From an uncultured Eubacteriales bacterium (GTDB lineage Bacteria; Bacillota; Clostridia; Christensenellales; CAG-138), in assembly GCA_900545265.1 (NCBI GenBank), contig UQYI01000006.1, positions 9,922-73,921 on the forward strand: DNA of 64,000 nucleotides. The letters run 5' to 3'. Numbering within the stretch: position 1 is the first letter of the stretch; each line of letters opens with the position of its first letter. Of the stretch, positions 2,553-51,342 are shown piece by piece. Both the position numbers and the translations under genes were made by a program. A model generated the notes under the pieces. That model saw only the letters and a program-made list of their open reading frames with translations. It was not told where the DNA came from and ran no database searches.

Positions 2553-2635
2553 GGGGGCGCACGTTCCGGCGGTTTTGCCGCCGGAACTCTGCGGGGGATC
2601 CCCGCAGGCATGCCTTGGGGCACGCAGTGCGCCCC
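2553..2635 (+). repeat. Family A cloverleaf repeat, copy A1
   Basis: GGGGGCGCAC | GTTCCGGCGG-ttttg-CCGCCGGAAC | CTGCGGGGG-atc-CCCCGCAG | GCATGCC-ttgg-GGCACGC | GTGCGCCCC. GTATAC lies 7 nt outside on both sides (2540-2545 and 2643-2648). Confidence 0.9.
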
Positions 2636-2764
2636 AACTCCCGTATACGCTTCTGCCCGGCTCTATGGCATGCCTCCGTTTCCGGCCTGGGCCGTGCTCT
2701 GACCGGCAGCGGAAAACCGTGGCCTGGGGCGCGGAGCACCGGGCAAAAGCCGTATACGATACCC

Positions 2765-2845
2765 GGGGCGCTGCTGCGGCGGCAGAGCCGCCGCGCCGCC
2801 CGCAGGGCGGGCTTTGGCGCCGCAGGCGCCAAAGGGCAGCGCCCC
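2765..2845 (-). repeat. Family B cloverleaf repeat, copy B1 (inverted relative to B2/B3)
   Basis: GGGGCGCTGC | CGGCGGC-aga-GCCGCCG | CCGCCC-gca-GGGCGG | CTTTGGCGCC-gca-GGCGCCAAAG | GCAGCGCCCC. GTATAC at 2752-2757. Confidence 0.85.
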
Positions 2846-2964
2846 CTCCCTCGAAGAGAACGCAGCCCCGCTCCCCCACATAAAAAGATCCCCCGCCGGG
2901 CGCTTTGCCTCGGGAAGGATCTTTTCTGTCTTTTACGTCTGTTCTTTTCTCCGCAATCCGCCGG

Positions 2965-3939
2965 TCAATTTTCTCCGCTGCCCTTGCGCCCGTGCTGATA
3001 CAGCTGCCGGTTGTCCAGGGCCCACAGCCGGTCAGAGAAGCCTCCCTTGCTCACGGTGGAAAGGGCGTCAAACATTTCAAACAGGCGGCTGTCCAGCAAG
3101 TCGCATTCCGAAAGCACCTCCGCTTCCGGGAACATGGGGAACTTGGGGCTGCCAAATTCCGGCTGACCATGGTGGGAAAGGAGCATATGCTCCAGCAGCA
3201 TGGCCGTTTCCTCCGGTATGTCCAGCCTGTCGGCGGCGTTGTGGATCAGGCTGATGCCAATGTTGATGTGCCCCAGCAGCTGCCCTTCGGGGGTATAGGC
3301 CGTGGCCAGCCCCAGCTTGCCCGTCTGCAATTCATACAGCTTGCCGATATCGTGAAGGGTGGCTCCTGCCGTTACCAGATCCCTGTCCAGCGCCGGATAC
3401 AGCTGGCAGATGGCCCGCCCCATGCGCACTACGGCGCAGGTATGCTGCAGCCAGCCTCCCCGGGTGGCATGATGGAGCTTTACGCCTGCCGGGAAACGCA
3501 ATATCTCCTGCCGGAAGGCATCCAGAAAATACTGCACCAGCTTTTTCAGATCCTTATCCGTAAATTCGTCGCTGAGGTTCCACAAATAATCAAAATATTT
3601 CTGAGGGTCTCCCGGGGCGCAGGGAACCAGACGGCTCATATCCACATTGTCCTCCGGGGTGGCCAGGCGGATGCGCTCCACCTTCAGCTGCTCCACGTCC
3701 TTCCAGATATTTATGGTAGCCCGGATCTTTACCACATCCTCCGGGTCAAAGGTACCATATGCGGCAATATTGTAATTCCACAGCTTGGCGGCGCATTCTC
3801 CTCCCGCATCCGCCACTGTCATATCCATATAGGAAGCGCCCTTGCTGTCCGTGCGCACGGCGCAGCTTTTGACCATGCAGAAACCCTCTACCTGGGTCCC
3901 GCGGCTCTCTTCCATCAAATTCATGCGGCTCATTTGCAT
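2965..3939 (-). CDS. yhaM: YhaM-like 3'-5' exoribonuclease (OB-fold plus HD domain)
   Basis: N-terminal OB-fold-like region followed by an HD domain (HATRGG...LHDIGK...SHHG). Start ATG at 3939 is preceded by GAAAGGAG. Confidence 0.75.
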   Translation of the reverse strand: MQMSRMNLMEESRGTQVEGFCMVKSCAVRTDSKGASYMDMTVADAGGECAAKLWNYNIAAYGTFDPEDVVKIRATINIWKDVEQLKVERIRLATPEDNVDMSRLVPCAPGDPQKYFDYLWNLSDEFTDKDLKKLVQYFLDAFRQEILRFPAGVKLHHATRGGWLQHTCAVVRMGRAICQLYPALDRDLVTAGATLHDIGKLYELQTGKLGLATAYTPEGQLLGHINIGISLIHNAADRLDIPEETAMLLEHMLLSHHGQPEFGSPKFPMFPEAEVLSECDLLDSRLFEMFDALSTVSKGGFSDRLWALDNRQLYQHGRKGSGEN

Positions 3940-4078
3940 GCTCCTTTCAGCGGTTGTTTTGCAGAATAAGTATATCAAAATTTTCACCGGATGAAAACAG
4001 GAACATTGTATAAAAAACGGGGCTGTGCTATACTTTTTAATGCGAATACAGGCGCTCGCTGCGCGCAGGAGAGGATAT

Positions 4079-6674: not shown

Positions 6675-6708
6675 GGCGGGCTGCGTATCTGGTTTTAATT
6701 TTGTTTAC

Positions 6709-6736: not shown

Positions 6737-6806
6737 TATATGGACAGCTTCGTGTATCGTTTATACGCTGCCCGCCGCTCCCCGTTTTTCCCGGTATACG
6801 GAAGGC

Positions 6807-6887
6807 GGGGCGCTGCCCTTTGGCGCCGTAGGCGCCAAAGCCCGCTCTGCGAGCGGTGCGGCGGCGAAGCCGCCGCAGCAGCGCCCC
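6807..6887 (+). repeat. Family B cloverleaf repeat, copy B2
   Basis: GGGGCGCTGC | CTTTGGCGCC-gta-GGCGCCAAAG | CCGCTC-tgc-GAGCGG | CGGCGGC-gaa-GCCGCCG | GCAGCGCCCC. GTATAC at 6794-6799. Confidence 0.9.
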
Positions 6888-7056: not shown

Positions 7057-7072
7057 TGTTTCACGTGAAACA
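7057..7072. promoter_or_regulatory. parS: parS centromere-like site 1
   Basis: TGTTTCACGTGAAACA is a perfect 16-bp palindrome matching the Firmicutes parS consensus TGTTNCACGTGAAACA. Confidence 0.9.
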
Positions 7073-7175
7073 TTTTTCTCCATGGGGCTGACTGGAAAAG
7101 CTGTCCCTGCCCAAACGGAAGCAGATGCGGGACGATACCCGCGGCAAGACGGAATATTGCACATGCACGAAGGCC

Positions 7176-7262
7176 GGGGGCGCACTGCGTGCCTTGCGGC
7201 ACGCCTGCGGGGCATTTGCCCCGCAGAGTTCCGGCGGCTTTGCTGCCGGAACGTGCGCCCCC
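7176..7262 (-). repeat. Family A cloverleaf repeat, copy A2 (inverted)
   Basis: Reverse complement of the A consensus. Hairpin 1 has one G.T pair (CTGCCGGAAC). GTATAC at 7270-7275, 7 nt outside. Confidence 0.9.
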
Positions 7263-7330: not shown

Positions 7331-8530
7331 TTATTTCAGCCGCTGCCCCAGATAAAACTCCAGCTGTGCCCGTATCTCCTCCAGCCCGGCAGGTTTTCTG
7401 GCACTGCCCTGGGCCATGTCTCCCCGGCCGCCGCCCTTGCCGCCCAGAGCAGCATTTACCGCCTGAATGACTTCGCCCATATCCAGGTTTATCCCTTTGC
7501 ACATGAGAATGTAGCTTACCTGCTCTCCGTTGGGGCACAGCAGCAGGGTCAGTGCCTTTGCTTCCAACGTGCTCTGGCACAGGGGCCGCAGCCGCTTTGG
7601 GTCCGTATCCTCTACAATCTCCACCAACAGCTTTTTCCCCTTTATATCCCGGGCCTTTTCCTTCAGCTCCCGGCTGTAATATCCCTCCAGCCGGGCGGAA
7701 AGGGATTTGTTCTGTCTTTTTGCGGCGTCCAGCTCTCCGTTCATTTTCTCCACGGCAGCAGATACCTTATCCACCCCTGTAGAAAAGCTCCGTGCCATGC
7801 CGTCCATAGCCTCCTGCAGCATGGCAGCGTAAGTATAAGCCCGGCCCCCGCACAAAAATGTCAGCCGCATACCGCCCTTATAGGCTGCTGCCTGGGTGAT
7901 CTTCAGCAGGCCGATCTCTCCGGTGTGCTTTACATGGGGGGCACAGCAGGTGCAGCTGTCCGCTCCCTCTATGGTCACCACCCGGATGGGAGCCGTTAAC
8001 CCCTCGGTATGCTTGCGCAGGGGCAGACCTTCCAACTCTTCCTCTGTTTCATAGATCACAGCGGTAACGGCCCGGTTTTCCCGGGCCACCCGGTTTGCCA
8101 GCTGCTCTATCTGTTTCAGCTGCTCCGCTGTCAGGGGGATATCCAGATCCAGGGTAGCATAGTCCAATGCACAGTGAAACCCAACGTTTACCGCCCCGTA
8201 CAGACTCCATGCACACCAGGAGAGCAGATGTTCCCCGGTGTGCTGCTCCATAATATCCTTTCTACGGGCCCAGTCTATAACGGCTTCCACCTCTGTTCCC
8301 GGTTCCAGCGGTTCGCTGCACAGATGTACCAGCCTGTCTCCTGCTTCGTTTACATCCAACACCTTTGCAGTGCCGATGGTGCCCAGGTCGCAGGGCTGAC
8401 CGCCCTTATTTGGGAAAAATACACTTCTGTCCAATTCTATTTCATAGCCTTTATCCGTTTTTACACAGGTTGTTACCCGGGCGGTGTTGCGGCACAGGTG
8501 GCTGTCCTGCAGATACAATCGTTCCGTCAT
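7331..8530 (-). CDS. alaX: AlaX-type alanyl-tRNA editing protein (tRNA_SAD plus DHHA1-like C-terminus)
   Basis: Zinc motifs HTGEHLL and CCAPHV, and C-terminal GGKGGGRGDMAQG. Start ATG at 8530 (residue 108 of the track ORF) follows TAAGGAG. The upstream part of the track ORF runs through a repeat. Confidence 0.8.
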   Translation of the reverse strand: MTERLYLQDSHLCRNTARVTTCVKTDKGYEIELDRSVFFPNKGGQPCDLGTIGTAKVLDVNEAGDRLVHLCSEPLEPGTEVEAVIDWARRKDIMEQHTGEHLLSWCAWSLYGAVNVGFHCALDYATLDLDIPLTAEQLKQIEQLANRVARENRAVTAVIYETEEELEGLPLRKHTEGLTAPIRVVTIEGADSCTCCAPHVKHTGEIGLLKITQAAAYKGGMRLTFLCGGRAYTYAAMLQEAMDGMARSFSTGVDKVSAAVEKMNGELDAAKRQNKSLSARLEGYYSRELKEKARDIKGKKLLVEIVEDTDPKRLRPLCQSTLEAKALTLLLCPNGEQVSYILMCKGINLDMGEVIQAVNAALGGKGGGRGDMAQGSARKPAGLEEIRAQLEFYLGQRLK

Positions 8531-8650: not shown

Positions 8651-8686
8651 GGGAAGCGGCGGCCGAGCCGCCGGAACGTGCGCCCC
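8651..8686 (-). repeat. Family A repeat, truncated copy A3 (hairpin 1 plus outer-stem arm only)
   Basis: GAAGCGGCGG-ccga-GCCGCCGGAAC GTGCGCCCC, with GTATAC at 8695-8700. The rest of the cloverleaf is missing or degenerate. Confidence 0.7.
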
Positions 8687-8828: not shown

Positions 8829-8844
8829 TGTTTCACGTGAAACA
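8829..8844. promoter_or_regulatory. parS: parS centromere-like site 2
   Basis: TGTTTCACGTGAAACA, identical to site 1. It ends 1 nt before the predicted -35 of the parA promoter. Confidence 0.9.
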
Positions 8845-8845
8845 A

Positions 8846-8907: not shown

Positions 8908-9681
8908 ATGGCCAAAGTGATTGCCATTGCCAACCAAAAAGGCGGAGTGGGGAAGACCACTACCACCGTAAACCTTTCTGCCTGCTGCGCCCAGCTGGGT
9001 AAGCGGGTGCTGCTCATGGATCTGGATCCGCAGGGCAACAGCACCAGCGGACTGGGCATAGATAAGCGTAAAACGGAAAACTCCCTGTACGAAGTCCTTA
9101 TCGATGGGGTGGAACCGGGAGAAGCTCTGGTATCCACCGAAATAGAAACCCTGCGCCTGCTTCCTGCCAGTATCTCTCTGGCCGGGGCAGAGGTGGAGCT
9201 GGTGGCCATGGAGCGCCGGGAACGGCGGCTGCTGGAGGCTGTGGGCCGCCTGCAGGAGGAGTTTGACTATATCTTTATGGATTGCCCTCCCTCTCTGGGT
9301 CTGCTGACGCTCAACGCCCTTACCGCCGCCGATGCACTGCTGATCCCCATCCAGTGCGAATATTTTGCCCTGGAGGGGCTGAGCCAGCTGATGAATACGG
9401 TCAAAATGGTTCGCCGGGGCCTGAATCCGGATCTGGAGATAGAAGGGGTGGTGCTGACCATGTTCGATGCCCGCACCAACCTTTCGGCACAGGTGGTGGC
9501 CGAGGTGAAAAAGTTCTTTATGAGCAAGGTGTTTGATACCATTATTCCCCGCACCGTCCGCCTGGGGGAGGCGCCCAGCTATGGACAGCCTATCTCCCTG
9601 TATGCCCCCAAAAGCGTGGGAGCGCAGGCTTATGAATCACTGGCCCGGGAACTGGTAGACCGGGAAGAAAAACAGGCATAA
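8908..9681 (+). CDS. soj: Chromosome partitioning ATPase ParA/Soj
   Basis: Deviant Walker A KGGVGKTTTTVNL and DLDPQGN. Start MAKVIAIANQ at 8908. The upstream part of the track ORF is repeat/intergenic read-through. Confidence 0.95.
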   Translation: MAKVIAIANQKGGVGKTTTTVNLSACCAQLGKRVLLMDLDPQGNSTSGLGIDKRKTENSLYEVLIDGVEPGEALVSTEIETLRLLPASISLAGAEVELVAMERRERRLLEAVGRLQEEFDYIFMDCPPSLGLLTLNALTAADALLIPIQCEYFALEGLSQLMNTVKMVRRGLNPDLEIEGVVLTMFDARTNLSAQVVAEVKKFFMSKVFDTIIPRTVRLGEAPSYGQPISLYAPKSVGAQAYESLARELVDREEKQA

Positions 9682-9699: not shown

Positions 9700-10557
9700 A
9701 TGGCCGCAAAGCAGATGAAAAAAGGATTGGGCCGGGGGCTGGATGCCCTTATGGAAAGTGTGGAGACCCAGGAGCATCAGGGCAAAGTGCTGACCCTGTC
9801 CGTGTATGAGATAGACACCAACCCGGATCAGCCCCGGAAAACCTTTGATGAAGAAAAGCTGGCAGAGCTGGCGGAAAGCATTCGCCGCCACGGCATCGTG
9901 CAGCCATTGGTGGTAGCGCCCAAGGGGCAGCGGTATATTATCGTAGCCGGAGAGCGCCGGTTCCGGGCTGCCCGGCTGGCCGGGCTGAAAACCGTTCCCG
10001 CTATCTGCATGGAGGCAGAGGAGGGAGCCCTGCAGGAGGTCAGCCTCATAGAGAATATCCAGCGGGAGGATCTGAACCCGGTGGAAGAAGCCGCCGCCAT
10101 CCGTTTTCTGATGGAACAGCATGACCTGACTCAGGAGGAGGTGGCCCAGCGCATCAGCAAGAGCCGCCCGGTGGTGGCCAATTCGCTGCGGCTGCTGACC
10201 CTGCCCAAAAGCATCCAGACCCTTATGAAGGAAGGGAAGCTTTCCGCCGGTCACGGCAAAATACTGGCCGGGCTGGAGGATAAAAAGCAGGCCGAAGAGC
10301 TGGGCAAACGGGCGGCGGAAGAGAACTGGAGCGTCCGCCGGCTGGAGGATACCCTCCGTTTACTGAATGCCAACAGGAGCCGTAAAAAAGCCGGGGATCC
10401 CTATCTGCGGCGTATGGCCGGAGCATTCCGCAGCCGGCTGGGAGCCAGAGTGGCCATCAACGGGGATCAGCAGAAGGGAAAGATCGTTATCTCCTACTAT
10501 TCTCCGGAGGATCTGGACGCCATTTACGAAGCCATTCTCGGCCGGGAGGAGGAGTAA
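9700..10557 (+). CDS. spo0J: Chromosome partitioning protein ParB/Spo0J
   Basis: ParB box DQPRKTFDEEKLAELAESIRRHGIVQPLVV, arginine patch GERRFRAA and an HTH region. Confidence 0.95.
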   Translation: MAAKQMKKGLGRGLDALMESVETQEHQGKVLTLSVYEIDTNPDQPRKTFDEEKLAELAESIRRHGIVQPLVVAPKGQRYIIVAGERRFRAARLAGLKTVPAICMEAEEGALQEVSLIENIQREDLNPVEEAAAIRFLMEQHDLTQEEVAQRISKSRPVVANSLRLLTLPKSIQTLMKEGKLSAGHGKILAGLEDKKQAEELGKRAAEENWSVRRLEDTLRLLNANRSRKKAGDPYLRRMAGAFRSRLGARVAINGDQQKGKIVISYYSPEDLDAIYEAILGREEE

Positions 10558-10607
10558 GCCTTCTTTGCACCTGACATGGAGCAGGGCTTTTAACGAAACA
10601 TATTTAT

Positions 10608-10646
10608 AGCTCCCGGTTTTCCGGGAGTTATTTTTGTGGTTTTTTT
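10608..10646 (+). terminator. Rho-independent terminator after parB
   Basis: AGCTCCCGG tttt CCGGGAGTT followed by TTTTTGTGGTTTTTTT. Confidence 0.7.
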
Positions 10647-10740
10647 CGGAGGATCCCGGCCGGGACAGCGCTTTCACATATCTGCGCTCAACCAGGCAGG
10701 GGGCGCCGCAATACGAAGTCAGGTGTGTATACGCAGCCCC

Positions 10741-10827
10741 GGGGCGCACGTTCCGGCGGCTCTGCCGCCGGAACTCTGCGGGGCGGCTGCCCCGCAGGCG
10801 TGCCCTCCGGGCACGCAGTGCGCCCCC
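10741..10827 (+). repeat. Family A cloverleaf repeat, copy A4
   Basis: Full consensus. Hairpin 3 is extended by a C-G pair (GCGTGCCC-tcc-GGGCACGC). GTATAC at 10727-10732. Confidence 0.9.
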
Positions 10828-10863
10828 GCCCTCGCTTCCCACCCGCTCCTTCCTTTTCACATA

Positions 10864-10879
10864 TGTTCCACGTGAAACA
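10864..10879. promoter_or_regulatory. parS: parS centromere-like site 3
   Basis: TGTTCCACGTGAAACA, an exact match to the B. subtilis-type parS consensus. Confidence 0.9.
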
Positions 10880-11003: not shown

Positions 11004-13559
11004 ATGCGCAGAAAATGGATGGCCTGGGCTATGTGCCTGCTGATGCTGGCAGGTCTGTGCCTGTACGGCCCTGCAGCCCATGCAGAAGAAGCTACCGACG
11101 CCTGCACCTACACCGTGCCCAAGGATACGGAAGCAGCCTGGCTGACGGATGAGCGGGTGCTCAGCCGGGTGAACGTCCCCAAGGGGAAAAACATCGTCCT
11201 CTCCCTGCCGGAGATGGCCGCCCCAACTCTCTATGCCGTGTGGTATGCCCGTCCCGTCTCTCTGACGCTTATAGAAAAGGATGCCGCCGGGCAGGAGATC
11301 GCTTCCCGGGAACTGACCCCCGCATCCCTGTACGAAAGCTATTCCCTGACTCCCGGCTGTGTTCAGGCAGAGCTGAAGGCCGGAGCGGAGGGCTACAGCC
11401 TTTCCACCCTGCGGGTCTTTGACGGCCCCATAGACGAAAGCCTGCCCTGCTATGATCCCGCCGCCCCGGCAGAGGGAGATGTACTGCTGATCTGCGGGGA
11501 GCCTCACAGTATGCTGGAGGATTTCGGCGCCCTGCTGCCCTATTGCACAGAGGGGCTGGATCTTTCCGTTTCCGTGGTCTTTGCCCATATGGGCACCCGG
11601 AAGGAGCTTCACGAAGCCGTCAATGCCCTGTGGGAGATGGGGCTGCATACCGCCCCGCTGGTGGGCGCCTTTGCCGACGATGATATAAACGAGTATAAAA
11701 ACGTGGTCAAAAAGTGGACGGAGAAACGCACCAAAGAGTTTCTCACCGCCTGCATCCGCCGGGTAAAGCCCCGGATCGTCCTTGCCGGGGATCTGCAAGG
11801 CAAAGAACCCCGGAGCCGCTTTACGGCGGAGATGACTGTAGAAAGCTGGAAGCTGGCTTCTCAGCAGGGGCAGTATCCGGATTCGGCCGCCGCTTACGGC
11901 GTTCATACCCCGGATAAGCTGTATACCCTCTCCGCCGCCGGGGGTACCACGGTGGATATGTCCGGCCTGACAGCGGGCGAAGAGACCCTTCTGACGGAAA
12001 CCGCCCGGACCGCCTACCGCTGCTTCGCTTCCCGGCAGATGTACCATATTCCTCTGCCGGAAAAACTGACTCTGTCCTTACAGGAGACCGGTGTGGGTCA
12101 GGATGCCAATAAGGACAGCCTGCTGGAGCATGTGGATACCGCCGGGCTCCGGCAATACGAAAACCGGCTGACGCCCCCTGTCACGCCTACTCCCGTCCCC
12201 ACGGATACGCCTGTTCCCACGGATACCCCCGTTCCTACGGATACGCCTGCACCGGAGGAAACCGCCGCTCCTCAGACCGACCCGGTCCCTGCGGAGACCC
12301 CCGTACCGCCGGAAGCCGCAGGGCAGCTGGCCCTGGAAAAGTTTGCGGGCAGCCCGCATACGGGAACCATTTTGATCGTGGGTCTGCTGGCCGCCGCTCT
12401 GCTGGGAGCCGCTCTGTATTTTGTAAAACGTTTTTACCGTAAAAAACTCCCTGTGACCGCTCTGTGGGCACTGCCCCTGCTCATCGGTCTGCTGACGGCG
12501 GTGCTGGCCGCTTATGATGTGTTTGCGCAGGGGGCCATGGTGCAGCGGCAGGCCATAGAAGCGGCGCAAAAAGCCACTCCCGTGCCTACCCCGGTACCCA
12601 CGGATACCCCTGCTCCCACAAATACACCTGCGCCTACGGATACACCGGCCCCCACACAGACTCCTGCTCCGTCTCCTGCAGAAACGCCTCTTCCCGAGAA
12701 AAATGCGGAGCTGACAGACTTTGACCGGCACTTTTTGAACGACGGTACCACGGAGCTGGTGGAGAAGAATGACGAGGAGGCGGGGGAATGGATCTATCGC
12801 AGCGATATTCTGGCCGTGGAGATCACCCGCAAGACCATTACGCTGGACGAGGAACCCCTGACCTATTATGCAGCCCATATCTATCAGCGGGAGTTTGATT
12901 CCTTCCGGCCCGCTTTTGCCACGGATAAAAAGACCGGCACGGAAACGGCTGCGGCACAGGATATGGTCAAACGCTACCGGGCCGTACTGTGGATCACCGG
13001 GGATAACATCATCCATGCGGAAAAGGAAAAGAAGGGCGTTCTTATCCGCAACGGACGCATCTACAGCAAGAACCGGGCGGTGGATACGCTGGCTCTGTAC
13101 AGCGATACCCTTTCCATGGAGATAGTGCCCAAAAGCCGCACGGCGGAGTATATCCTCTCCAGCGGCGCAGAAAACACCTATTCTTTCTTCCACGGTCCCA
13201 AGCTGCTGGTGGACGGGGAGATCCATAAGGACGCTTACCGCACCACCCAGAAGAACCCGCGCTGCGGCGTAGGGCAGGTGGCTCCGGGGCATTTTGTGGC
13301 CATAGTGGCCGACGGCCGGCAGAAAGGCTACAGCAGCGGCGCCCGGCTGAGTCAGTTTGCCCAGCTGTTTAAGGACGAAGGCTGCACCCTGGCCTTTAAT
13401 CTGGACGGCGGCGTTTCCACAGCCATGTTCTTTATGGGCAAAATGATCAACCGGGTGGAGGATAACGGCAAGACCGGCTATGAAGCCTCCTGGCTGCGGG
13501 CAGTGCCTGACGGGCTGGTGTGGGGCTATACCAACCTGCCCGGCTATTTTGAAAACTGA
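11004..13559 (+). CDS. Large envelope protein: signal peptide, LmbE/PIG-L-like domain with degenerate motif, Pro/Thr linkers, two TM helices, C-terminal phosphodiester glycosidase (NAGPA/DUF2233-like) domain
   Basis: Start MRRKWMAWAMCLLMLAGLCLYGPAAHA at 11004. C-terminus GVGQVAPGHFVAIVADGRQKGYSSG...AFNLDGGVSTAMFF is typical of phosphodiester glycosidases. The N-terminal 93 residues of the track ORF are repeat A4/parS read-through. Confidence 0.75.
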   Translation: MRRKWMAWAMCLLMLAGLCLYGPAAHAEEATDACTYTVPKDTEAAWLTDERVLSRVNVPKGKNIVLSLPEMAAPTLYAVWYARPVSLTLIEKDAAGQEIASRELTPASLYESYSLTPGCVQAELKAGAEGYSLSTLRVFDGPIDESLPCYDPAAPAEGDVLLICGEPHSMLEDFGALLPYCTEGLDLSVSVVFAHMGTRKELHEAVNALWEMGLHTAPLVGAFADDDINEYKNVVKKWTEKRTKEFLTACIRRVKPRIVLAGDLQGKEPRSRFTAEMTVESWKLASQQGQYPDSAAAYGVHTPDKLYTLSAAGGTTVDMSGLTAGEETLLTETARTAYRCFASRQMYHIPLPEKLTLSLQETGVGQDANKDSLLEHVDTAGLRQYENRLTPPVTPTPVPTDTPVPTDTPVPTDTPAPEETAAPQTDPVPAETPVPPEAAGQLALEKFAGSPHTGTILIVGLLAAALLGAALYFVKRFYRKKLPVTALWALPLLIGLLTAVLAAYDVFAQGAMVQRQAIEAAQKATPVPTPVPTDTPAPTNTPAPTDTPAPTQTPAPSPAETPLPEKNAELTDFDRHFLNDGTTELVEKNDEEAGEWIYRSDILAVEITRKTITLDEEPLTYYAAHIYQREFDSFRPAFATDKKTGTETAAAQDMVKRYRAVLWITGDNIIHAEKEKKGVLIRNGRIYSKNRAVDTLALYSDTLSMEIVPKSRTAEYILSSGAENTYSFFHGPKLLVDGEIHKDAYRTTQKNPRCGVGQVAPGHFVAIVADGRQKGYSSGARLSQFAQLFKDEGCTLAFNLDGGVSTAMFFMGKMINRVEDNGKTGYEASWLRAVPDGLVWGYTNLPGYFEN
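12198..12251 (+). repeat. 3 x 18-bp tandem repeat encoding (PTDTPV)n linker
   Basis: CCCACGGATACGCCTGTT / CCCACGGATACCCCCGTT / CCTACGGATACGCCTGCA. Confidence 0.8.
12597..12668 (+). repeat. 4 x 18-bp tandem repeat encoding (PT[DNQ]TPA)n linker
   Basis: CCCACGGATACCCCTGCT / CCCACAAATACACCTGCG / CCTACGGATACACCGGCC / CCCACACAGACTCCTGCT. Confidence 0.8.
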
Positions 13560-15063: not shown

Positions 15064-15097
15064 CAGCTCCCCTGTCCGGGGAGCTTTTTGCGTTTTT
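15064..15097 (+). terminator. Rho-independent terminator
   Basis: AGCTCCCC tgtcc GGGGAGCT followed by TTTTGCGTTTTT. Confidence 0.7.
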
Positions 15098-15131: not shown

Positions 15132-15214
15132 GGGGCGCACGTTCCGGCGGCTTGCCGCCGGAACTCTGCGGGGCATTGCCCCGCAGGCGTGCCTTTCGGC
15201 ACGCAGTGCGCCCC
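15132..15214 (+). repeat. Family A cloverleaf repeat, copy A5
   Basis: Full consensus with loops cttg / att / tttc. GTATAC at 15119-15124. Confidence 0.9.
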
Positions 15215-15531: not shown

Positions 15532-15936
15532 TCACTTTCTGGTGGAAGGGCTACGGCGTTTCATCATGGCTTCCAAAGCCCGGAAGGCTTCAGGACTCAT
15601 GCTCATATAATCCTCCTGGGGCGCCAAAGCCCGGTTGGCACGGGTGGGGCGGGGGAGCTCCTGCCGGGTCTGGGCGGCCAGGGTCAGTTCCTCCATGACG
15701 TCTGCCCGGGCGTTTTGGGCGGCCTGCTCCGCCTGATATACCCGCAGGGCAGCATAGGCAGGCAGTTCCGTAAGCAGGGCGGCAAAGGCCGGGTCCTGGC
15801 AGACCTCCTCCAGCTCCAGCCCCTGGGGAAACTTATCCTGCCGCACCAGCTCCATCAGTTCTTCTATCGCCTGGGCAAAGGACGTTTCCTGTTGGGAGGG
15901 TTCCTGTTGAACAGGACTGCGTTTGAATAGATTCAT
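15532..15936 (-). CDS. Probable phage scaffolding or minor head protein
   Basis: Position between portal and capsid genes. Helical, charged and Q/E/A-rich 134 aa protein. No specific motif recognised. Confidence 0.45.
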   Translation of the reverse strand: MNLFKRSPVQQEPSQQETSFAQAIEELMELVRQDKFPQGLELEEVCQDPAFAALLTELPAYAALRVYQAEQAAQNARADVMEELTLAAQTRQELPRPTRANRALAPQEDYMSMSPEAFRALEAMMKRRSPSTRK

Positions 15937-15939
15937 GAT

Positions 15940-17547
15940 TTACCTCCGGATAAAATTGTGTATCTTGCGGTTCTTTTTTACGGGCGCCGCTTCACCGGCA
16001 TCCCGGTCCATGACCTTGAGCACCTGTTCCTTGCCTTCAAAAAGCATGAGCTCCACGGCCTGCCTGGGGCGCAGGGCCCCCATCTGCATCAGCTGCAATA
16101 CCAGCTCGTTCTGTGCGGCTGCGGCAAATTTGTTCTGCCGGCTGGCCTTGACAGAGATGAAAAACTCCATGGGCAGGGCCCGTTCTTTGGTGGGCAGCAG
16201 CTGGGCGCTGTCAAACAGACATTCCCGGCTCTCCCCGTTTTCCGTGATGGTCACGGGCCGCAGGTAGAAGTTAAACTCCCGTTCCACCTCTATCTCCATG
16301 CGCACTGCCTGCCGGAAGGCTTCGTGAAGCTGCTCCGTGGCCATGCGGGCCCGCTTGGTGCTGGCCTCCTGCAAAGCCTGAATGGCGCTGGCGGCGGTGA
16401 CTCCCTGGCGGAAGTTCCCCCGACTGGAATCGTTGGCGCCGCTCTCCTCCTTGATGTCCTCCCGGATCCTGCCGATGTAGCCAAGCAGATAACTGGGCAG
16501 GGGCGGGGTAGAGAACCAGGTGATGCCGTTCAGGCTCTCGCCCCGGTGAACCTCTTTGGACCAGTCCTTCAGATCCTCCTCGTCAAAGCCGGAGCTCTGG
16601 GTCACCAGCAGCTTGTTGCGGCTGGCCATAAAGGCATTTTTCAGCACGATCTGATCCAGCTTGTCTGCATAGCGCTGCTGCTTTTCAAACAGATCCACTA
16701 TGCCAAAGCCCAGACAGCTGCCCTTGCGCACATACAGCGGGGTCAATACAAAGGGGTACTGGCCGTGAGCAAAGTAGCCCTCCGGCTTTTGCCGGCGGCT
16801 GTCCTCCAGCACAGCGCCCCCGCACAGCAGGGCCATATGCACCTGGCTGCGGCCGTTTTTATCGGGCGGGGTTTTCCACCAGTATTCCAGCAGGAGCAGG
16901 GCGTCCCGGCGGTCGGCAGTCAGGGTCTCGTCCATGGGCGCATCGGCGCAGGCATAGGCGTCCTCTCCGATGAAGGGAGCCTTCTCCGGGTAGCGTTCCT
17001 CTATCCACTGCCGGGAGCGGATGGAGAATTTGAACACTGCCCGTCCCTCCTGCATATCGTCGCACAGGGGGTCAAAGAGGATGCTCCGATTATCTACACT
17101 GCGGATGTAGGCGCCGCCCAGGCCGTTGTTCAGGGCGGGGTCATAGCCCACCTCCTGAACGCAGTAGCCCCCCACCAGAAGATCGTGGACCAGCTTCCTG
17201 TATTCCAATGGATAGCCGGATACATCGTGGTTCCGGGCAATGACCGCTTCCACCACCCGGGCCACATGGCTGTCGGCCCCGCTTTCCGGGGTGATAAGAG
17301 CCTGAGGGCATTGATCCATCAGATCGGCGCTTACGTTTTCAATGGTGCTCTGGATCACCGGGGTCACGGGCCGGGGCTCGTGGGGGTCTGTCTGGGGCAC
17401 ATCGTACCAGTGATCCCCCCGGTACATCCTTTCGTTGTTTTCCAGCCGCTGCCATTCCCGCATATATGCGCTGCGGTAAGCGGCAAAGAGTGCATAGGCC
17501 TGTTGGGCAAGAAGTTTTTCGCCCGGGGCCGTATCCTTTCTGTTCAT
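15940..17547 (-). CDS. Phage portal protein
   Basis: 535 aa, located directly after the large terminase gene. N-terminal WQRLENNERMYRGDHW and overall layout resemble SPP1-Gp6-like portals. Confidence 0.75.
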   Translation of the reverse strand: MNRKDTAPGEKLLAQQAYALFAAYRSAYMREWQRLENNERMYRGDHWYDVPQTDPHEPRPVTPVIQSTIENVSADLMDQCPQALITPESGADSHVARVVEAVIARNHDVSGYPLEYRKLVHDLLVGGYCVQEVGYDPALNNGLGGAYIRSVDNRSILFDPLCDDMQEGRAVFKFSIRSRQWIEERYPEKAPFIGEDAYACADAPMDETLTADRRDALLLLEYWWKTPPDKNGRSQVHMALLCGGAVLEDSRRQKPEGYFAHGQYPFVLTPLYVRKGSCLGFGIVDLFEKQQRYADKLDQIVLKNAFMASRNKLLVTQSSGFDEEDLKDWSKEVHRGESLNGITWFSTPPLPSYLLGYIGRIREDIKEESGANDSSRGNFRQGVTAASAIQALQEASTKRARMATEQLHEAFRQAVRMEIEVEREFNFYLRPVTITENGESRECLFDSAQLLPTKERALPMEFFISVKASRQNKFAAAAQNELVLQLMQMGALRPRQAVELMLFEGKEQVLKVMDRDAGEAAPVKKNRKIHNFIRR

Positions 17548-17569
17548 GTATCTCCTTTCTGCACGGGGG

Positions 17570-18904
17570 CTACAGTCCCCGGAAGCCTCCGTTTCCGGGG
17601 CCGGTCACAGGGGCAAAGGGGTCATAGGCCGGGACATGGCGCAGGCAGGGTATCCGGGCGGGGATGGGCCGGGACATAAGGCCGTAGCGCAGCGCCTCCG
17701 GGGCATGATCCTCACAGGCATCGCTGACATCCTCACAGTTGTGGGTGTCATAGGTGAGCAGGGGCAGGGTACGGATCAGATTGGAGCAGGTTTCAAAAAT
17801 CACCAGCCCCGGCCGGCCGTCTTCCCCTGTCCGCAAGGCTTCCCGCACCCGCTGCCAGCCGGTGATGCGCCGGTTGTCCGCCGGGAGCAGGGGTACCCCG
17901 CCCCGGGCAAAAACCTCGGCGATGGATTCCCCCTGGGCGCCGCCCAGCCCCCGCTGCTGCCAGGCGTCCGGGGAGGCGGCGGTATAGGCGATCCTCTCCC
18001 CCTGAGAAAGGGCCGCCACCTGCCTGGCAATGTCGCTGGAAAGGGTTCTGCGCACATACAGTTCCCGGTATACCAGCACCTGCCCTTCGGGATCCACGGC
18101 GAACCAGAGCACGCAGCATGGGTCGTTGTAACCCCAGTCCATGGCTCGAAACCGCCGCCAGTGGGCAGGAATGGCGCAGGGCGGCTCCACATGGATATCC
18201 CGGCGGAATTCCGGGAAGTACTGCCCCTGAAGCACATCCCAGTCTCCTTCCAGATAGGCCCGGCGCAAATGCTCCGGCAGGCTCAGCAGGCTTTTCCGGT
18301 AGCCGGGATCCCGCTCCATGAGCACGGGGTTGTCTGTGAGCCGGGCCGGGATAAAGCGGTAATCCGCCGGGGTCTCCCCCTCCCGGTACTGCCGGTCCAG
18401 AAACAGGCGTTTTACCCAGCCGTGGCCCACGCCCCCGGGGTTGCAGGTGTAGTACATCCGGGGAGAGAAGTCCCGCCTTACGGAGCGGTTGCAGGTGGTC
18501 AGAAACTGCATCTGGCTTTCCGTAAAGTGGGTGGCCTCCTCCAGACCGATCACGTCGTACTCCTGCCCCTGATACTGGTATACATCCTTTTCCAGATCAC
18601 AGTATCCCAGCTTGATCCTGGAGCCGTTGGGAAAGAGAAAGCACCGCTGGCTCTGGTTATACCGGGCTACACCGTTGAGCTCCTGCAGCAGGGGGCGAAC
18701 ATGGTTCTCTGTCAGTTCCGGCAGGGTGCGGCGCAGAAGCAGCAGCTGCAAGCCCTCATAGCGAAAGGCCAGCAGCACGAATTTGCGGCGCATGGCCCAG
18801 CTTTTGCCCCCGCCTCTGGCTCCGCCGTAGGCCGTATGCCGGGCGGAGGAGAGGAAAAAGGCAGCCTGCTTGGGGTTGGGGGTTCCCTGTAAGAGCAGCT
18901 TCAT
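17570..18904 (-). CDS. terL: Phage terminase large subunit
   Basis: Walker A YGGARGGGKSW and a downstream nuclease half. Start MKLLLQGTPNPKQ at 18904 overlaps the terS stop (ATGA). Confidence 0.9.
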   Translation of the reverse strand: MKLLLQGTPNPKQAAFFLSSARHTAYGGARGGGKSWAMRRKFVLLAFRYEGLQLLLLRRTLPELTENHVRPLLQELNGVARYNQSQRCFLFPNGSRIKLGYCDLEKDVYQYQGQEYDVIGLEEATHFTESQMQFLTTCNRSVRRDFSPRMYYTCNPGGVGHGWVKRLFLDRQYREGETPADYRFIPARLTDNPVLMERDPGYRKSLLSLPEHLRRAYLEGDWDVLQGQYFPEFRRDIHVEPPCAIPAHWRRFRAMDWGYNDPCCVLWFAVDPEGQVLVYRELYVRRTLSSDIARQVAALSQGERIAYTAASPDAWQQRGLGGAQGESIAEVFARGGVPLLPADNRRITGWQRVREALRTGEDGRPGLVIFETCSNLIRTLPLLTYDTHNCEDVSDACEDHAPEALRYGLMSRPIPARIPCLRHVPAYDPFAPVTGPGNGGFRGL

Positions 18905-19299
18905 AGGCTGTACGCCTCCGCGCCGCCCTCCATGGAAACGGTAAGGGACGAAGGCCCTTCCTCCTGGGGATACAGCTCCTTCAGGGCGGCGGTGGCCACC
19001 TGATAGCTCAATTCCCCCAATAATGCCCGTTCCATGGTATAGGCGGCGATGCGGCATACGGCCTGCGAAAGCAGTGCCCGCTGCCAGGGTGCGCCCCCTT
19101 CGCCCCGGCTCAAAGCCAGCAGCTCCGGTGCGGGCAGATGCATATGGGCACACAGGCCGTAAAGAGTGTAGGGGATCTGTCTCTCTGAAAATCCGCCTCC
19201 CTTCAGGGCCGTACGCTCCCGGGTGCTGTCGCACAGGGCAAAATACGCTTCCACGGCCTGTTCCCATTCCCGGCGGTTGGCCGGGGGTCTCTTTTCCAT
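18901..19299 (-). CDS. terS: Phage terminase small subunit
   Basis: AVEAYFALCD...IPYTLYGLCAHMHL pattern (gp3-like small terminase HTH). Start ATG at 19299 follows GGAAAGGAGG. Confidence 0.65.
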   Translation of the reverse strand: MEKRPPANRREWEQAVEAYFALCDSTRERTALKGGGFSERQIPYTLYGLCAHMHLPAPELLALSRGEGGAPWQRALLSQAVCRIAAYTMERALLGELSYQVATAALKELYPQEEGPSSLTVSMEGGAEAYSL

Positions 19300-19480
19300 T
19301 GTTCTGTCCGCCTCCTTTCCCTTGGCTCGGGAACAATCTATCACGGCAGGCACTGTAAAAATTTTTATAAATCCTCCACCATGAGGAGAGAAAGAGATAC
19401 AGGAGAGGTGTAAACTTTTTCCTTTTTGTCCGGTTTGATAAAGAAAGTGTGGTAATATAAAAGAAAAGGAGAACTCTTTC

Positions 19481-20194: not shown

Positions 20195-20295
20195 GATCCT
20201 GCAATGAGGGATATGCTGTTCTTCCGGCCAGGGATTTCGTGCTGTAAGAAGAAGCTGGGAGCGCTTTCCCGGCTTTATGGAGTTGTGCGGTATAC

Positions 20296-20381
20296 GGGGG
20301 GCGCTGCCAGACGGCAGCGTGGTGCCCAAGTATTACGCGCAGAACAGCGGCGCGGCGGCGGAGCCGCCGCAGCAGCGCCCC
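20296..20381 (+). repeat. Family B repeat, degenerate copy B3
   Basis: Outer arms GGGGGGCGCTGC...GCAGCGCCCC and hairpin CGGCGGC-gga-GCCGCCG are retained. The other two hairpins are replaced. GTATAC at 20290-20295. Confidence 0.65.
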
Positions 20382-26232: not shown

Positions 26233-26321
26233 GGGGGGCGCACGTTCCGGCGGCTTTGCCGCCGGAACTCTGCGGGGGCGGATGCCCCGCAGGCGTGCCG
26301 ACAGGCACGCAGTGCGCCCCC
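26233..26321 (+). repeat. Family A cloverleaf repeat, copy A6
   Basis: Full consensus with loops ctttg / gcggatg / gaca. GTATAC at 26221-26226, and a degenerate GTATGT directly 3' (26322-26327). Confidence 0.9.
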
Positions 26322-28656: not shown

Positions 28657-28743
28657 GGGGGCGCACGTTCCGGCGGCTTTGCCGCCGGAACTCTGCGGGG
28701 CTTCGCCCCCGCAGGCGTGCCGTCAGGCACGCAGTGCGCCCCC
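28657..28743 (+). repeat. Family A cloverleaf repeat, copy A7
   Basis: Full consensus with loops ctttg / cttcgc / gtca. GTATAC at 28644-28649. Confidence 0.9.
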
Positions 28744-47730: not shown

Positions 47731-47758
47731 TTGCATTTTGTGTCGGCTGTGCTATAAT
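47731..47758 (+). promoter_or_regulatory. Predicted ferredoxin promoter
   Basis: TTGCAT, 16 nt spacer, TGc-TATAAT. Confidence 0.55.
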
Positions 47759-47788
47759 GGGAATGAAATTTTACAGGAGGTAGCGAAC

Positions 47789-47959: not shown

Positions 47960-47984
47960 GCGCAAAGCTTGAAAAACCGAAAAA

Positions 47985-48010
47985 GCGGCGGAGCATTCCG
48001 CCGTTTTTTT
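47985..48010 (+). terminator. Rho-independent terminator after fdx
   Basis: CGGCGGA gcat TCCGCCG followed by TTTTTTT. Confidence 0.75.
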
Positions 48011-48155
48011 GTGCGCCGAAAACAGTATGCATCGTAAAGGTACCAAAGACAAAAAGCCTTTTTGCCTTGGAAGGAGAGCGGGGTGTACCGGCTGCTGCCT
48101 GAGATAAATAAAGCGCCTTATCAACCGGAAAGGCAGACGGGGCGCTGCTGTATAC

Positions 48156-48689: not shown

Positions 48690-48737
48690 ACAGGGATCCT
48701 CCTTTTGTATCGTCGTTCTCAAAGAAACTTGTCCGGA

Positions 48738-50156
48738 TCAGTTCCGGATATTTTTTGCGCCCGGCACCGCCAGGGGGATGGTTACGGTAAAAGTGCTGCC
48801 CTTTCCGGGGGTGCTTTCCACGGTGATCCGCCCGCCGTGGGTCCGCACAATGGCCTGGGCAATGGTCAGCCCCACGCCGGTGCCCCCGGTCTTACGGTGA
48901 CGGGAAGGGTCTGCCCGGTAGAAGCGCTCAAACAGATAGGGCAGGTCCTTTTTGTCTATGCCGATGCCGCTGTCGGTAATGCTGATACGGGCCAAATCCT
49001 CCTCCCGGGCCAGCGTCCAGCGGATGGAGCCTCCTTCGGGCGTATACTTTACGGCGTTGGACATAAGGTTTTGCAGCACCTGGCTGATCCGGTCCCGGTC
49101 GGCTTCCGCCGTCAGGGAACCGCCCTCCAGGCGGCAGTCAATATGCTTTTCCTGCAGGGCTCCTGCAAACAGCTCCCGGATATCCTCCAGCAGTGCTTTG
49201 AACTCCACCGGCTCCCGGTGGAGCACCAGCTGCTCGCTTTCCATCTGCTGCAGGCGGCTCAGATCCCCCAGCAGCCCGGCGATCCGGCTCAGTTCCTGAC
49301 AACAGGCATTGAGACGTTCTCTGGTAGGCTCCCATATTCCCTCCGCCATAAGCTCCAGATGGGTGGAAACGTTGGCGATGGGGGTGCGCATTTCATGGGC
49401 CACATCGGTGACCAGCCGCCGGCGGAGCATCTCCTGATCATCCAGCGTACCGGCCAGGTCATTGACGGCGGCGGTAAGCTCCGCCAGTTCCCGGGAGGAG
49501 GCTTTGCCCTGGACCCGGGTCTTGTAATTCCCGGCGGCGATCTCCCGGGTGGTTTCCGTGACCCGGATAATGGGGTTGGTGATATGCCTGGCCAGCAGAT
49601 AGCCGGCTGTGCCTGCCGCCAATACGGCGATCAAAGCCATGGAGACCAGCATCTTATTCAGCGCATCCAGAAAGCGGAAGTCCCCTTCCGACATGGAGTA
49701 GGGGCCGTAATACCCAACAGAAGCCGTTCCCACCTTAACGCCATCGCTCATAAGATTGTAATGGGCTTCCATATAGCCCCCTTCTTCCTGGGAGTGGACC
49801 TTCTGCATCCGCTCGGCCATGGCCTCCATGAGCTTCCGACACTGCGTCATATCGTGATTCTGAGCATCCCATACGGTCTGTCCGTTCAGATCGTATACCT
49901 TGACGATGTACCCCTGACTCAGGGCCGCCATGCCGTAACCGTGAATGAACTCCACGTTCCAGCTGGAGGTAAGGGGGCTGTACTGCTGGGAAAGGCCCAG
50001 AGCAATGGTATCGGCGTATTCCTCCTGCTGCTGTTGCAAGTGCGCCTCATACTGCCGGCCGATGCAGCGGTTTGTGCGCATGAAGATAAAGGCCACCGTC
50101 AGCAATACGATGCATATAAAGCCCAGGGTCAGCTGGGTGCGCAGCTTCCACTTCAT
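48738..50156 (-). CDS. Sensor histidine kinase (TM-HAMP-HisKA-HATPase)
   Basis: H-box HEMRTPIANV, N-box and G-box GGTGVGLTIAQAIV. Confidence 0.9.
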   Translation of the reverse strand: MKWKLRTQLTLGFICIVLLTVAFIFMRTNRCIGRQYEAHLQQQQEEYADTIALGLSQQYSPLTSSWNVEFIHGYGMAALSQGYIVKVYDLNGQTVWDAQNHDMTQCRKLMEAMAERMQKVHSQEEGGYMEAHYNLMSDGVKVGTASVGYYGPYSMSEGDFRFLDALNKMLVSMALIAVLAAGTAGYLLARHITNPIIRVTETTREIAAGNYKTRVQGKASSRELAELTAAVNDLAGTLDDQEMLRRRLVTDVAHEMRTPIANVSTHLELMAEGIWEPTRERLNACCQELSRIAGLLGDLSRLQQMESEQLVLHREPVEFKALLEDIRELFAGALQEKHIDCRLEGGSLTAEADRDRISQVLQNLMSNAVKYTPEGGSIRWTLAREEDLARISITDSGIGIDKKDLPYLFERFYRADPSRHRKTGGTGVGLTIAQAIVRTHGGRITVESTPGKGSTFTVTIPLAVPGAKNIRN

Positions 50157-50854
50157 GCTTTTCCTCCCAGCCGGTAGCCCACGCCCCGAACGGTGAACAG
50201 ATAGCGGGGATCCCTTGGATCGTCTCCCAGCTTTTTGCGCAGATTTTTGATATGCGTATCTACGGAACGGTCAAAACCGTCATACTCGCTGTCAAAGGCC
50301 AGATCCAGCAGCTCGTCCCGGGTAAAAGTTTTGCAGGGATGAGCGGCCAGGGCATACAGGATCCGCCATTCAATAGGCGTAAGCTCCAGCAGTGTGCCCT
50401 TGAGAAAGGCCTGATGGGCGGTTCCGTCCAGGCGAAGATCCTCATAGATATATATGTCTTTGTCTTTGGGTGCGTCTTCCCTGGGGGAGGTACGCCTGCG
50501 GATGGCCTCCACACGGGCCAGCAGCTGCTTCATGCTGAAGGGCTTGGTCACATAATCGTCTGCTCCCAGGTCAAACCCTTCTATGACGGAACTGTCCTGG
50601 GTCTTGGCCGTCAGCATGAGAATGGGCACCTGTGAACGGGCCCGCAGCCGGCGGCAGACCTCTTCTCCGCTTACTCCGGGAAGCATAAGATCCAGCAGGA
50701 TAAAATCCACCTGCTCTTCGTCAAACAGCTTCAAAGCCGTTTCCCCGTCTTCCGCCGTAAGGACTCGGTAGCCTTTTGCTTCAAAAAAAGCGGCCACCGC
50801 CGTGCGGATCATTTCTTCATCCTCCACTATCATAAGGGTATAGGGGTGTTCCAT
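50153..50854 (-). CDS. OmpR/PhoB-family response regulator
   Basis: Receiver domain with LLDLMLPGVSG and a winged-helix C-terminus (RVLTAEDGETA lies in the receiver). Overlaps the kinase start by 4 nt. Start MEHPYTLMIVEDE. Confidence 0.9.
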   Translation of the reverse strand: MEHPYTLMIVEDEEMIRTAVAAFFEAKGYRVLTAEDGETALKLFDEEQVDFILLDLMLPGVSGEEVCRRLRARSQVPILMLTAKTQDSSVIEGFDLGADDYVTKPFSMKQLLARVEAIRRRTSPREDAPKDKDIYIYEDLRLDGTAHQAFLKGTLLELTPIEWRILYALAAHPCKTFTRDELLDLAFDSEYDGFDRSVDTHIKNLRKKLGDDPRDPRYLFTVRGVGYRLGGKA

Positions 50855-51259
50855 GGATGTGTTCCTCTCTGTATGCAGCATGTGGTTCGGTTTATGCGGA
50901 TGCATCCGGATTTTGGCGGATACATCTGCCGGGATCGTATGTTTTCAGTTTGATTGTACCCATATTTCCCGGAATTGTAAACAGAAAAATACTCTCCCCC
51001 GGTATATGCAGGAAGAAAGAAGGACAGGAATGAAAAAGCAGATAACGGCAAGCGACGATCCGCAAATATATGTCCGTAAAGACGGATAAGCGGTACTTCC
51101 GCACGGCCTGTTTTCTGGAAGGGAGAGAGCCGTGGTTTCCTGCCGATATAGCGGCAAAACGATCAAAGTAATTTGTTTACGCGCTTTTTTGCTAAAATGG
51201 ACGGAGGAAAAGGGGAAGCAGGCCCGCTGCTTTCGGGATTTAGAGATGTATACGGGGGC

Positions 51260-51342
51260 GGGGGGCGCACGGCGTGCCCTTCGGGCCCGCCTGCGGGGCG
51301 GCCGCCCCGCAGAGTTCCGGCGCAGCCGGAACGTGCGCCCCC
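51260..51342 (-). repeat. Family A cloverleaf repeat, copy A8 (inverted, slightly eroded)
   Basis: Hairpin 1 is shortened to 8 bp (GTTCCGGC-gca-GCCGGAAC) and hairpin 3 has one mismatch. GTATAC at 51248-51253. Confidence 0.85.

Follow-up and report, generated by a model that had tools for sequence, protein, structure and literature searches.

Repetitive extragenic palindromes (REPs) and bacterial interspersed mosaic elements (BIMEs) of Enterobacteria and Pseudomonas are GC-rich extragenic palindromes of high copy number, located mostly at the 3' ends of genes; their sequences are species-specific, a tag marks the foot of the stem, they form mosaics with small motifs, and they are stable between strains (PMC2817692, PMC3733652, PMC3479197). 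Repeats with a GTAG/CGTC tag have been reported from Proteobacteria, Cyanobacteria, Chloroflexi and the Planctomycetes-Verrucomicrobia-Chlamydiae (PVC) group, not from Firmicutes (PMC3733652). The BOX elements of Streptococcus pneumoniae and S. suis consist of a boxA/boxC pair enclosing independently folding boxB modules, and comprise several families with common internal modules and different ends (PMC3049150). For BOX, which proliferated in the past and is slow now, neither a mobilising enzyme nor a clear target duplication has been reported (PMC3049150). Here, a repeat designated family A was analysed in a 64-kb stretch of DNA (the window, whose first letter is position 1) from contig UQYI01000006.1 of an uncultured Eubacteriales bacterium, a member of the Clostridia from the human gut. 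Each full copy folds as a closed cloverleaf of three hairpins, and family A is best read as a lineage-restricted, non-coding extragenic DNA repeat of the general REP/BIME/BOX kind that represents a new structural class. To our knowledge, almost all small structured repeats described so far are single hairpins, mostly from Proteobacteria, and no description of a closed three-hairpin repeat of such a shape was found in the literature.

Family A occurs in the window as seven full copies and one truncated copy, and the coordinates that an earlier note, made by reading the letters without database searches, had given for all eight were reproduced to within 1 nt. On the plus strand, copy 1, which has a long hairpin 1, lies at 2553-2635, 55 nt past a terminator-like hairpin at 2478-2498 and between two CGTATACG boxes at 2539-2546 and 2642-2649; copy 4 lies at 10741-10827, 110 nt past a terminator-like hairpin at 10606-10631; copy 5 at 15132-15214, 47 nt past another at 15065-15085; copy 6 at 26233-26321, with two GTATAC boxes upstream (26187 and 26221); and copy 7 at 28657-28743, identified by the covariance model and by folding. 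On the minus strand are copy 2 (7176-7262; 105 bits), situated beyond the terminator of a minus-strand alaX-like gene at 7331-8530, the truncated copy (8651-8686), which is a deletion derivative, and copy 8 (51260-51342), a member of the short-hairpin-1 subfamily with its GTATAC box on the 3' side at 51248-51253. A covariance model of family A built from 70 copies recovered exactly seven full-length copies in the window, with scores of 72-105 bits and E values of 1e-11 to 1e-17. Exact 15-17-mers of the element occur 6-8 times, compared with an expectation of <0.5-3.3 even when 3 mismatches are allowed. Human-gut metagenome stretches were retrieved with a pattern in which 23 bases, in hairpin 2 and its junction, were held constant. 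At least 105 stretches matched family A, and among the matches listed there are 110 full copies, 68 distinct sequences and approximately 42 genomic sites. Many of the stretches are 97-99% identical to the window outside the repeats, implying that they belong to the same species. Within 729 kb of these related contigs, approximately 120 sense-strand copies were detected by the covariance model.

The family A unit is 80-91 nt long and is made up of four helices. In the minimum free energy (MFE) fold of every full copy, both as RNA and as single-stranded DNA (ssDNA), an outer stem of 9-11 bp closes three abutting hairpins with 0-2 unpaired bases at the junction, so that the closed four-way junction proposed earlier was obtained throughout and no full copy folded otherwise. 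The RNA folds reach -64 to -80 kcal/mol (z -5.0 to -10.6) and the ssDNA folds -41 to -51 kcal/mol (z -5.3 to -11.4). In nearly all copies the two arms of the outer stem, GGGG(G)CGCAC...GTGCGCCCC(C), form perfect terminal inverted repeats. When 70 sequences were aligned, 46 columns were invariant and 19 nearly so, all of them junction-proximal in the four helices, and pairing was present in 99.5% of alignment cells, compared with 36-54% when the partners were slid by 1-3 columns. In this alignment 20 of the 30 pairs are invariant and a compensatory change is seen in only 2; diverged copies add few more, such as GCGTGCC to CCGTGCC in hairpin 3 (H3) and GTTCCGG to GTTGCGG in hairpin 1 (H1), each together with its partner. 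Invariant pairs with almost no compensation indicate that the constraint acts on the sequence around the junction and not only on pairing. A covariation test within family A was uninformative because the stems hardly vary. Between sites, the paired junction-proximal columns have a mean identity of 98.7%, loops and distal stems one of 50%, and the flanks of 20 nt on either side one of 36-39%, from which it follows that the conserved unit ends sharply at the outer stem. The alignment thus agrees with the earlier description of stems that are nearly identical, loops that vary in sequence and length, and stem-length changes that are paired. Eight cells are of the G.U type versus 11 non-standard cells, approximately 9 of the latter being A.C or C.A, and there is no sign of selection on one transcribed RNA strand.

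At least five or six sequence families (A-F), family A among them, have a common plan, the other closed three-hairpin families having been found by a fold scan and targeted searches. Family B has the same plan with different hairpins and is present in the window at 2765-2845 on the plus strand (GTATAC box 2752-2757), at 6807-6887 on the minus strand (box 6794-6799) and, in altered form, at 20298-20381 on the minus strand (box 20290-20295); with these three copies the total of A and B in the window is the eleven counted previously. The altered copy preserves hairpin 1 and the outer stem and has 39 unrelated bases in place of hairpins 2 and 3, and an intact family B unit occupies the same site in a sister strain (L080:11784-11864). 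Families C, D, E and F were found in contigs that also carry A. Hairpin sequences differ between families, as do the outer stems in E and F, while the plan is constant: the outer stem measures 9-11 bp, each of the three hairpins 4-12 bp and the whole unit 80-96 nt, with 0-3 nt at the junction. Across families A-E, all 23 of 23 junction-proximal positions are paired, with more than one pair type at 21. Individual hairpins recur between families, those of the TTGGCGCC type being present in B, C, D, E and F and CGGCGGC/GCCGCCG being common to the H1 of A and B. The best evidence for the importance of the architecture itself is this retention of the plan while hairpin modules are swapped.

A GTATAC box is located 6-9 nt outside the outer stem, across a spacer that is not conserved. 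GTATACG occurs 25 times in the window on both strands, versus 1.75 expected, and 13 of the 32 GTATAC sites in the window adjoin an A or B unit; with 32 sites the hexamer is not depleted, and its explanation as a restriction site avoided elsewhere was rejected. GTATAC forms the centre of a small palindrome whose arms vary between sites (GGTTCGTATACGAACC, GCGTATACGC, TTTGTATACAAA), implying that the box is the tip of a mini-hairpin. The box at 10727-10732 is an example of such a tip with variable arms, and others start at 2540, 2643, 2752, 6794, 7270, 8695, 15119, 20290, 26187, 26221, 28644 and 51248. At one site (L033/L078) GTATAC forms the tip of hairpin 2 itself. Over the approximately 42 sites, among the matches listed, the box is on the 5' side at 21, on the 3' side at 10, on both at 3, and absent or degenerate at 8, so that GTATACG is found on one side only at 31 of 42. 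The side follows the subfamily: copies with a long hairpin 1 have the box 5' at 21 of 26 sites and often carry the 3' motif GCCyyCGCTTCCC, and those with a short hairpin 1 have it 3' at 9 of 16. There is no GTAG/CGTC consensus in the flanks of family A copies. Small motifs recur in the flanks, among them GTATAC boxes, CGCTTCCC and GCAGCGGCGGG, as well as additional modules of 33 and 47 nt that vary between strains, and the presence or absence of such small motifs from strain to strain makes them mosaics in the BIME sense. The 33- and 47-nt modules stand beside family A copies in sister strains (L013:856-874 and L013:5170-5217) and are missing from the window (10828-10843 and 15110); they are bounded by direct repeats of 9-10 nt, which points to slippage deletions.

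Comparison of strains reveals that 22 sites covered by at least two of them differ within the unit. In at least nine cases a loop is exchanged for its reverse complement at the same site, the pairs observed being TGC/GCA, CGCAG/CTGCG, TT/AA, ATT/AAT, TAA/TTA, TCG/CGA, AAA/TTT and CCG/CGG, together with GAA/TTC in family B. Units also lose parts through deletions bounded by short direct repeats. Of the truncated copy at 8651-8686, hairpin 1 and the outer stem's 5' half remain (8658-8686), joined to GCTTCCC, a motif of the 3' flank (GGGAAGC at 8651-8657); a full copy stands at the orthologous site of a sister strain (L040:6533-6617), and in the window the segment enclosed by two short direct repeats is missing. 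Loop inversions and microhomology deletions are DNA-level events typical of hairpin-forming inverted repeats, and with them no selection need be invoked for the free loops and the paired stem changes. A flip of the whole cloverleaf between fixed flanks was rejected, since no pair of sites is so related and the side of the box follows the hairpin-1 subfamily. No cloverleaf-free GTATAC ... CGCTTCCC target site was seen except the deletion derivative of the window. In several contigs (L065, L108, L017/L024, L019/L038) one flank only is shared with another site and the break falls exactly at the cloverleaf, where the 5' flank of one site meets the 3' flank of another, reflecting either recombination between dispersed copies or short-read assembly chimeras. 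Contig L114 has its start within a B unit and its end within an A unit.

The window comes from an origin-proximal part of the chromosome and includes mnmG, rsmG, parA/parB with three parS sites, mreB and leuS. Genes were called with a codon-usage model trained on Pfam-verified genes and checked with Pfam, and no family A copy was located inside a gene, either in the window or at the 42 related-contig sites among the matches listed. The intergenic position recognised in the earlier note therefore holds, with no copy in frame inside a conserved gene, and the long open reading frames (ORFs) that cross the repeats are, as had been supposed there, artefacts, arising from high G+C. The preferred position of copies is 80-150 nt after stop codons, and most copies in the window lie 45-110 nt downstream of a canonical terminator consisting of a hairpin and a T-run. 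In a test of the copies as intrinsic terminators, the 3' flank was GCCCTCGCTTCCC or GCCCCCGTATACG with no U-tract, the real terminators being upstream. The contexts at the 42 sites comprise 16 that are tandem and co-oriented, 5 tandem and anti-oriented, 12 convergent and 9 divergent, and in 8 of the 12 convergent contexts the co-oriented gene is the nearer.

A gapped pattern of 26 bases matched once in GTDB representative genomes of 185,579 species, in a 3.7-kb contig of the metagenome-assembled genome UMGS1691, named 'uncultured Lachnospiraceae'. Judged by these searches, family A is lineage-restricted, as REPs are. A known RNA family was ruled out, as Rfam gave no match at gathering score and none overlapping a copy at E<=5, and so was a tRNA-like gene, as ARAGORN called no tRNA at the repeats. 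No blastn match was obtained in the plasmid and phage collections PLSDB and INPHARED, and the exact patterns of family A and of the B-type hairpin were not matched in IMG/VR viral contigs; an element borne by a plasmid, phage or virus was rejected on these collections, although one A variant is present in a prophage of a sister strain. The impression recorded at the start, that the repeat belongs to no named family, is consequently upheld by Rfam, ARAGORN and the plasmid, phage and viral collections, in none of which a described repeat or RNA family was matched. In sister species whose RsmG is 80-81% identical, neither family A nor family B follows rsmG, and other hairpin repeats stand there instead (L110-L113, 3' of rsmG; ends of contigs L117 and L119). 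One type consists of tandem small hairpins with variable stems and the spacer (G/A)TGAAAT(C); the other, a GTAG-tagged GC hairpin (CCCGTAGGGCGGGGGCTTGCTCCCGCC), resembles classical REPs. The short-read contigs of these sister species end inside their repeats. A relative at 72% identity has short AT-rich spacers and no element, and is too diverged, with a different synteny. A search of related species for orthologous empty sites gave none, the 80-81% relatives carrying other repeats and the 72% relative being too diverged.

As the defining features of REPs, REPINs and miniature transposable elements with inverted repeats (MITEs) failed and no RNA family was matched, family A was filed as a new structural form of small structured extragenic repeat. 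We put at about even odds, with a probability of roughly 0.5, the reading in which both the multiplication and the recognition of the units take place at the level of DNA, a specific protein recognising the cruciform or folded strand at the junction core and the GTATAC hairpin. The units would be multiplied as DNA, with folded ssDNA or an extruded cruciform as the probable working form. A sequence- and structure-specific protein would read, around the junction, the 6-8 bp that are invariant in each helix, and the nearby GTATAC hairpin may serve it as a second mark. The likeliest candidate for such a reader would be an enzyme that resembles HUH proteins or REP-associated tyrosine transposases (RAYTs) and acts on single-stranded DNA, and it may instead be another junction-binding nuclease or recombinase. 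The hairpin tips would be free, scrambled by hairpin-mediated minute inversions and replication slippage. As a secondary effect, a copy reached by transcriptional read-through would give a highly stable junction in RNA, which could stop exonucleases or impede polymerase. Formation of the junction in vivo, its recognition by a protein and the mode of spread are what we infer from these patterns.

Several results weigh against reading the units as DNA elements served by a dedicated protein. Searches for partner enzymes and insertion sequences (ISs) covered 0.9 Mb, a part of the genome, and tblastn with three Y1 queries gave no match at E<=1 to a RAYT or IS200-like gene there, so that the RAYT or IS200/IS605-type transposase suggested as a check in the earlier note did not appear; this negative is weak. 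Among 721 predicted proteins none was encoded at several sites. A consistent target duplication was not seen, GTATACG being on both sides at only 3 of 42 sites. Neither presence/absence polymorphism nor an empty site was observed at the sites covered by at least two strains (97-99% identity), and the comparison of occupied with empty sites that had also been proposed accordingly gave no empty site. The excess of co-oriented over anti-oriented tandem contexts, 16 versus 5, hints at a link with transcription. Furthermore, a retrieval pattern that fixes 23 bases biases the sample towards well-kept copies. As for a partner enzyme in the strain-specific island at 58.9-62.6 kb, only ORFs without identification and a DUF4368 fragment were found in it. 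A bolder form of the DNA-level reading, which we regard as doubtful, holds that the cloverleaf is the substrate of new structure-specific machinery reading a single-strand, Holliday-junction-like four-way junction together with the GTATAC hairpin. A protein would then copy, move or maintain the units, and the 80-96-nt plan with its exchangeable hairpins would be its 'grammar'; if true, this would make the cloverleaf a new class of mobile or domesticated DNA element and not a REP variant.

Function at the RNA level, with spread as only the vehicle, is one rival. The cloverleaf would in that case be an element of 3' untranslated or intercistronic regions that protects RNA from exonucleases, serves as a back-up or hairpin-cluster terminator, or marks a site of processing, and REP, BOX and hairpin clusters have been reported to affect transcripts (PMC3049150, PMC8355165). 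An extremely stable RNA fold, a location 80-150 nt after stops, an orientation biased to the upstream gene (16 versus 5 in tandem contexts) and the nearer position of the co-oriented gene in 8 of 12 convergent contexts are all consistent with it. Most copies in the window, however, lie beyond a canonical terminator, where little transcript is expected, no U-tract follows the element, and at 14 of 42 sites the gene on the 5' side is divergent or anti-oriented. G.U and A.C mismatches are equally frequent, the sequence of the stems is invariant and not their pairing alone, the loop inversions and deletions are DNA events, and Rfam gave no match. A function in RNA is therefore considered unlikely.

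Descent from an insertion sequence appears somewhat less probable still. The outer stem would represent the 9-10 bp terminal inverted repeats (GGGGGCGCAC termini) of a deleted IS, forming a MITE mobilised in trans by a DDE transposase, with (C)GTATACG as the duplicated target. A perfect terminal inverted repeat, a size of 80-96 nt, an extragenic position and a high copy number fit this explanation, as do identical 7-8 bp (C)GTATACG boxes on both sides at three sites and several more sites with a degenerate second box. Nevertheless, the boxes are parted from the stem by unconserved spacers of 6-9 nt, so that they would not be the ends of the element, and at 31 of 42 sites there is a box on one side only. 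No direct repeats abut the outer stem, no insertion polymorphism is seen between strains, and searches of 0.9 Mb gave neither a transposase nor a paralogous protein; moreover, derivation from IS ends does not explain a single three-hairpin plan across several families. It is highly improbable that the units are enzyme-free, self-perpetuating palindromes, made and homogenised by template switching, slippage and gene conversion and tolerated in intergenic DNA; this offers no reason for constant three hairpins or for a fixed GTATAC box. Loop flips, paired stem changes and microhomology deletions do demonstrate active hairpin-templated mutation, contigs joining the flanks of different sites suggest recombination between copies, and no partner gene was found. 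But template switching within a hairpin preserves pairing and cannot preserve one sequence across 42 scattered sites, the loops, which differ, would be homogenised by gene conversion too, and the chimeric contigs may be errors of short-read assembly.

Other features of the window were also recorded. Around parA (8908-9681) and parB (9700-10557) lie three perfect or near-perfect sites (TGTTTCACGTGAAACA / TGTTCCACGTGAAACA) at 7063-7078, 8830-8845 and 10864-10879, which we take to be parS from the Bacillus subtilis consensus; a repeat finder grouped two of them as family D20. A large secreted protein has a C-terminal NAGPA phosphodiester glycosidase domain and two blocks of 18-nt tandem coding repeats (about P-T-D-T-P-x) at 12167-12670. 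A prophage remnant at 15532-19353 includes a P22-like portal gene (15940-17547) and a large terminase gene (17570-18904). At this locus a sister strain (L013:5446-13916) has approximately 4.5 kb more phage genes, and an A-variant cloverleaf lies between two of its prophage genes (L013:8658-8754). The 97-nt 'tRNA-Gln' called by ARAGORN at 24450-24546 is within a gene for an NlpC/P60 peptidoglycan hydrolase (24353-26152) and is probably a false positive. At 58894-62587, a 3.7-kb segment of low GC content (~49%), missing in strain L043, interrupts a terminator-like hairpin (GCCGGGGCTTT^TGCAGCCGGC) in its loop; the segment holds ORFs without Pfam matches and the fragment of DUF4368, a domain associated with large serine recombinases.

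Small structured repeats such as REP, BIME, BOX and Correia have a part in shaping the genomes of bacteria: they act as punctuation in operons, are bound by nucleoid proteins and gyrase, change the stability of mRNA and promote rearrangements. An abundant lineage of gut Clostridia is now seen to carry a superfamily of four-way-junction units with an invariant core and exchangeable hairpins, which raises a testable question, namely by what a four-way junction made of a single strand is read in the chromosome of a bacterium, and the cloverleaf provides a defined substrate of ~85 nt for pull-downs and nuclease assays. There is a practical consequence as well, as the repeats break, and may mis-join, short-read metagenome assemblies of the host species and its relatives, with contigs ending in them and some flanks being chimeric. 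The frequent loop inversions from strain to strain constitute a clean bacterial case of hairpin-mediated minute inversions, in which the loops of non-coding chloroplast hairpins, flanked by short inverted repeats, become their reverse complement between close relatives. Minute inversions at hairpins are also discussed elsewhere (PMC6005162, PMC9653739). They are a mutational phenomenon and not a repeat family, and account for the loop variation here, not for the element.

Set beside the known systems, the cloverleaf repeat resembles REPs in being high-copy, GC-rich, extragenic, species-specific, tagged near the stem foot, mosaic and stable between strains. It differs from them in form, a REP being a single imperfect hairpin of 20-40 nt with a GTAG/CGTC tag, and the cloverleaf a closed three-hairpin junction of ~85 nt whose tag is a palindromic GTATAC mini-hairpin placed 6-9 nt away and not at the stem foot. 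REPINs are inverted REPs at a fixed short spacing, whereas cloverleaf copies are solitary, the nearest inverted pairs being 1.2-2 kb apart. REPs and BIMEs have a RAYT (TnpA-REP), usually flanked by REPs; with the Y1 queries none was found for the cloverleaf in 0.9 Mb. MITEs such as Correia of Neisseria, ERIC, RUP and Nezha are likewise small, non-coding, strongly paired and intergenic, with terminal inverted repeats, but each is one long IS-derived hairpin with defined target duplications and a cognate IS, three features of which none was found here. The IS200/IS605-derived element PATE has subterminal hairpins at both ends, a fixed tetra- or pentanucleotide target always 5' of its left end and a TnpA of the Y1 type; the box of the cloverleaf is 5' at 21 sites, 3' at 10 and on both sides at 3, and the Y1 queries gave no TnpA in 0.9 Mb. 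In the inverted terminal repeat (ITR) of parvoviruses such as adeno-associated virus (AAV), an outer palindrome closes internal hairpins, an HUH nuclease reads the folded form, and the interior exists in flip and flop orientations. The likeness is one of shape only, in that the outer palindrome of the cloverleaf also closes small hairpins; the AAV ITR, which terminates a linear viral genome, has the form of a T-shaped three-way junction and flips its whole interior, while cloverleaf loops flip singly with no flip of the whole unit. With BOX the likeness is one of architecture only, both being modular Firmicute repeats in which pairing ends enclose internal modules that are common to several families. 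The modules of BOX, however, each measure 45-60 nt, have a higher AT content and vary in number (A1BnC1), and they form no fixed, perfect four-way junction; we know of no sequence similarity of the cloverleaf to boxA, boxB or boxC, and of no GTATAC box in BOX. In its behaviour, by analogy, the element nonetheless appears especially like streptococcal BOX: extragenic, structured, modular and species-specific, having spread in the past and being slow now.

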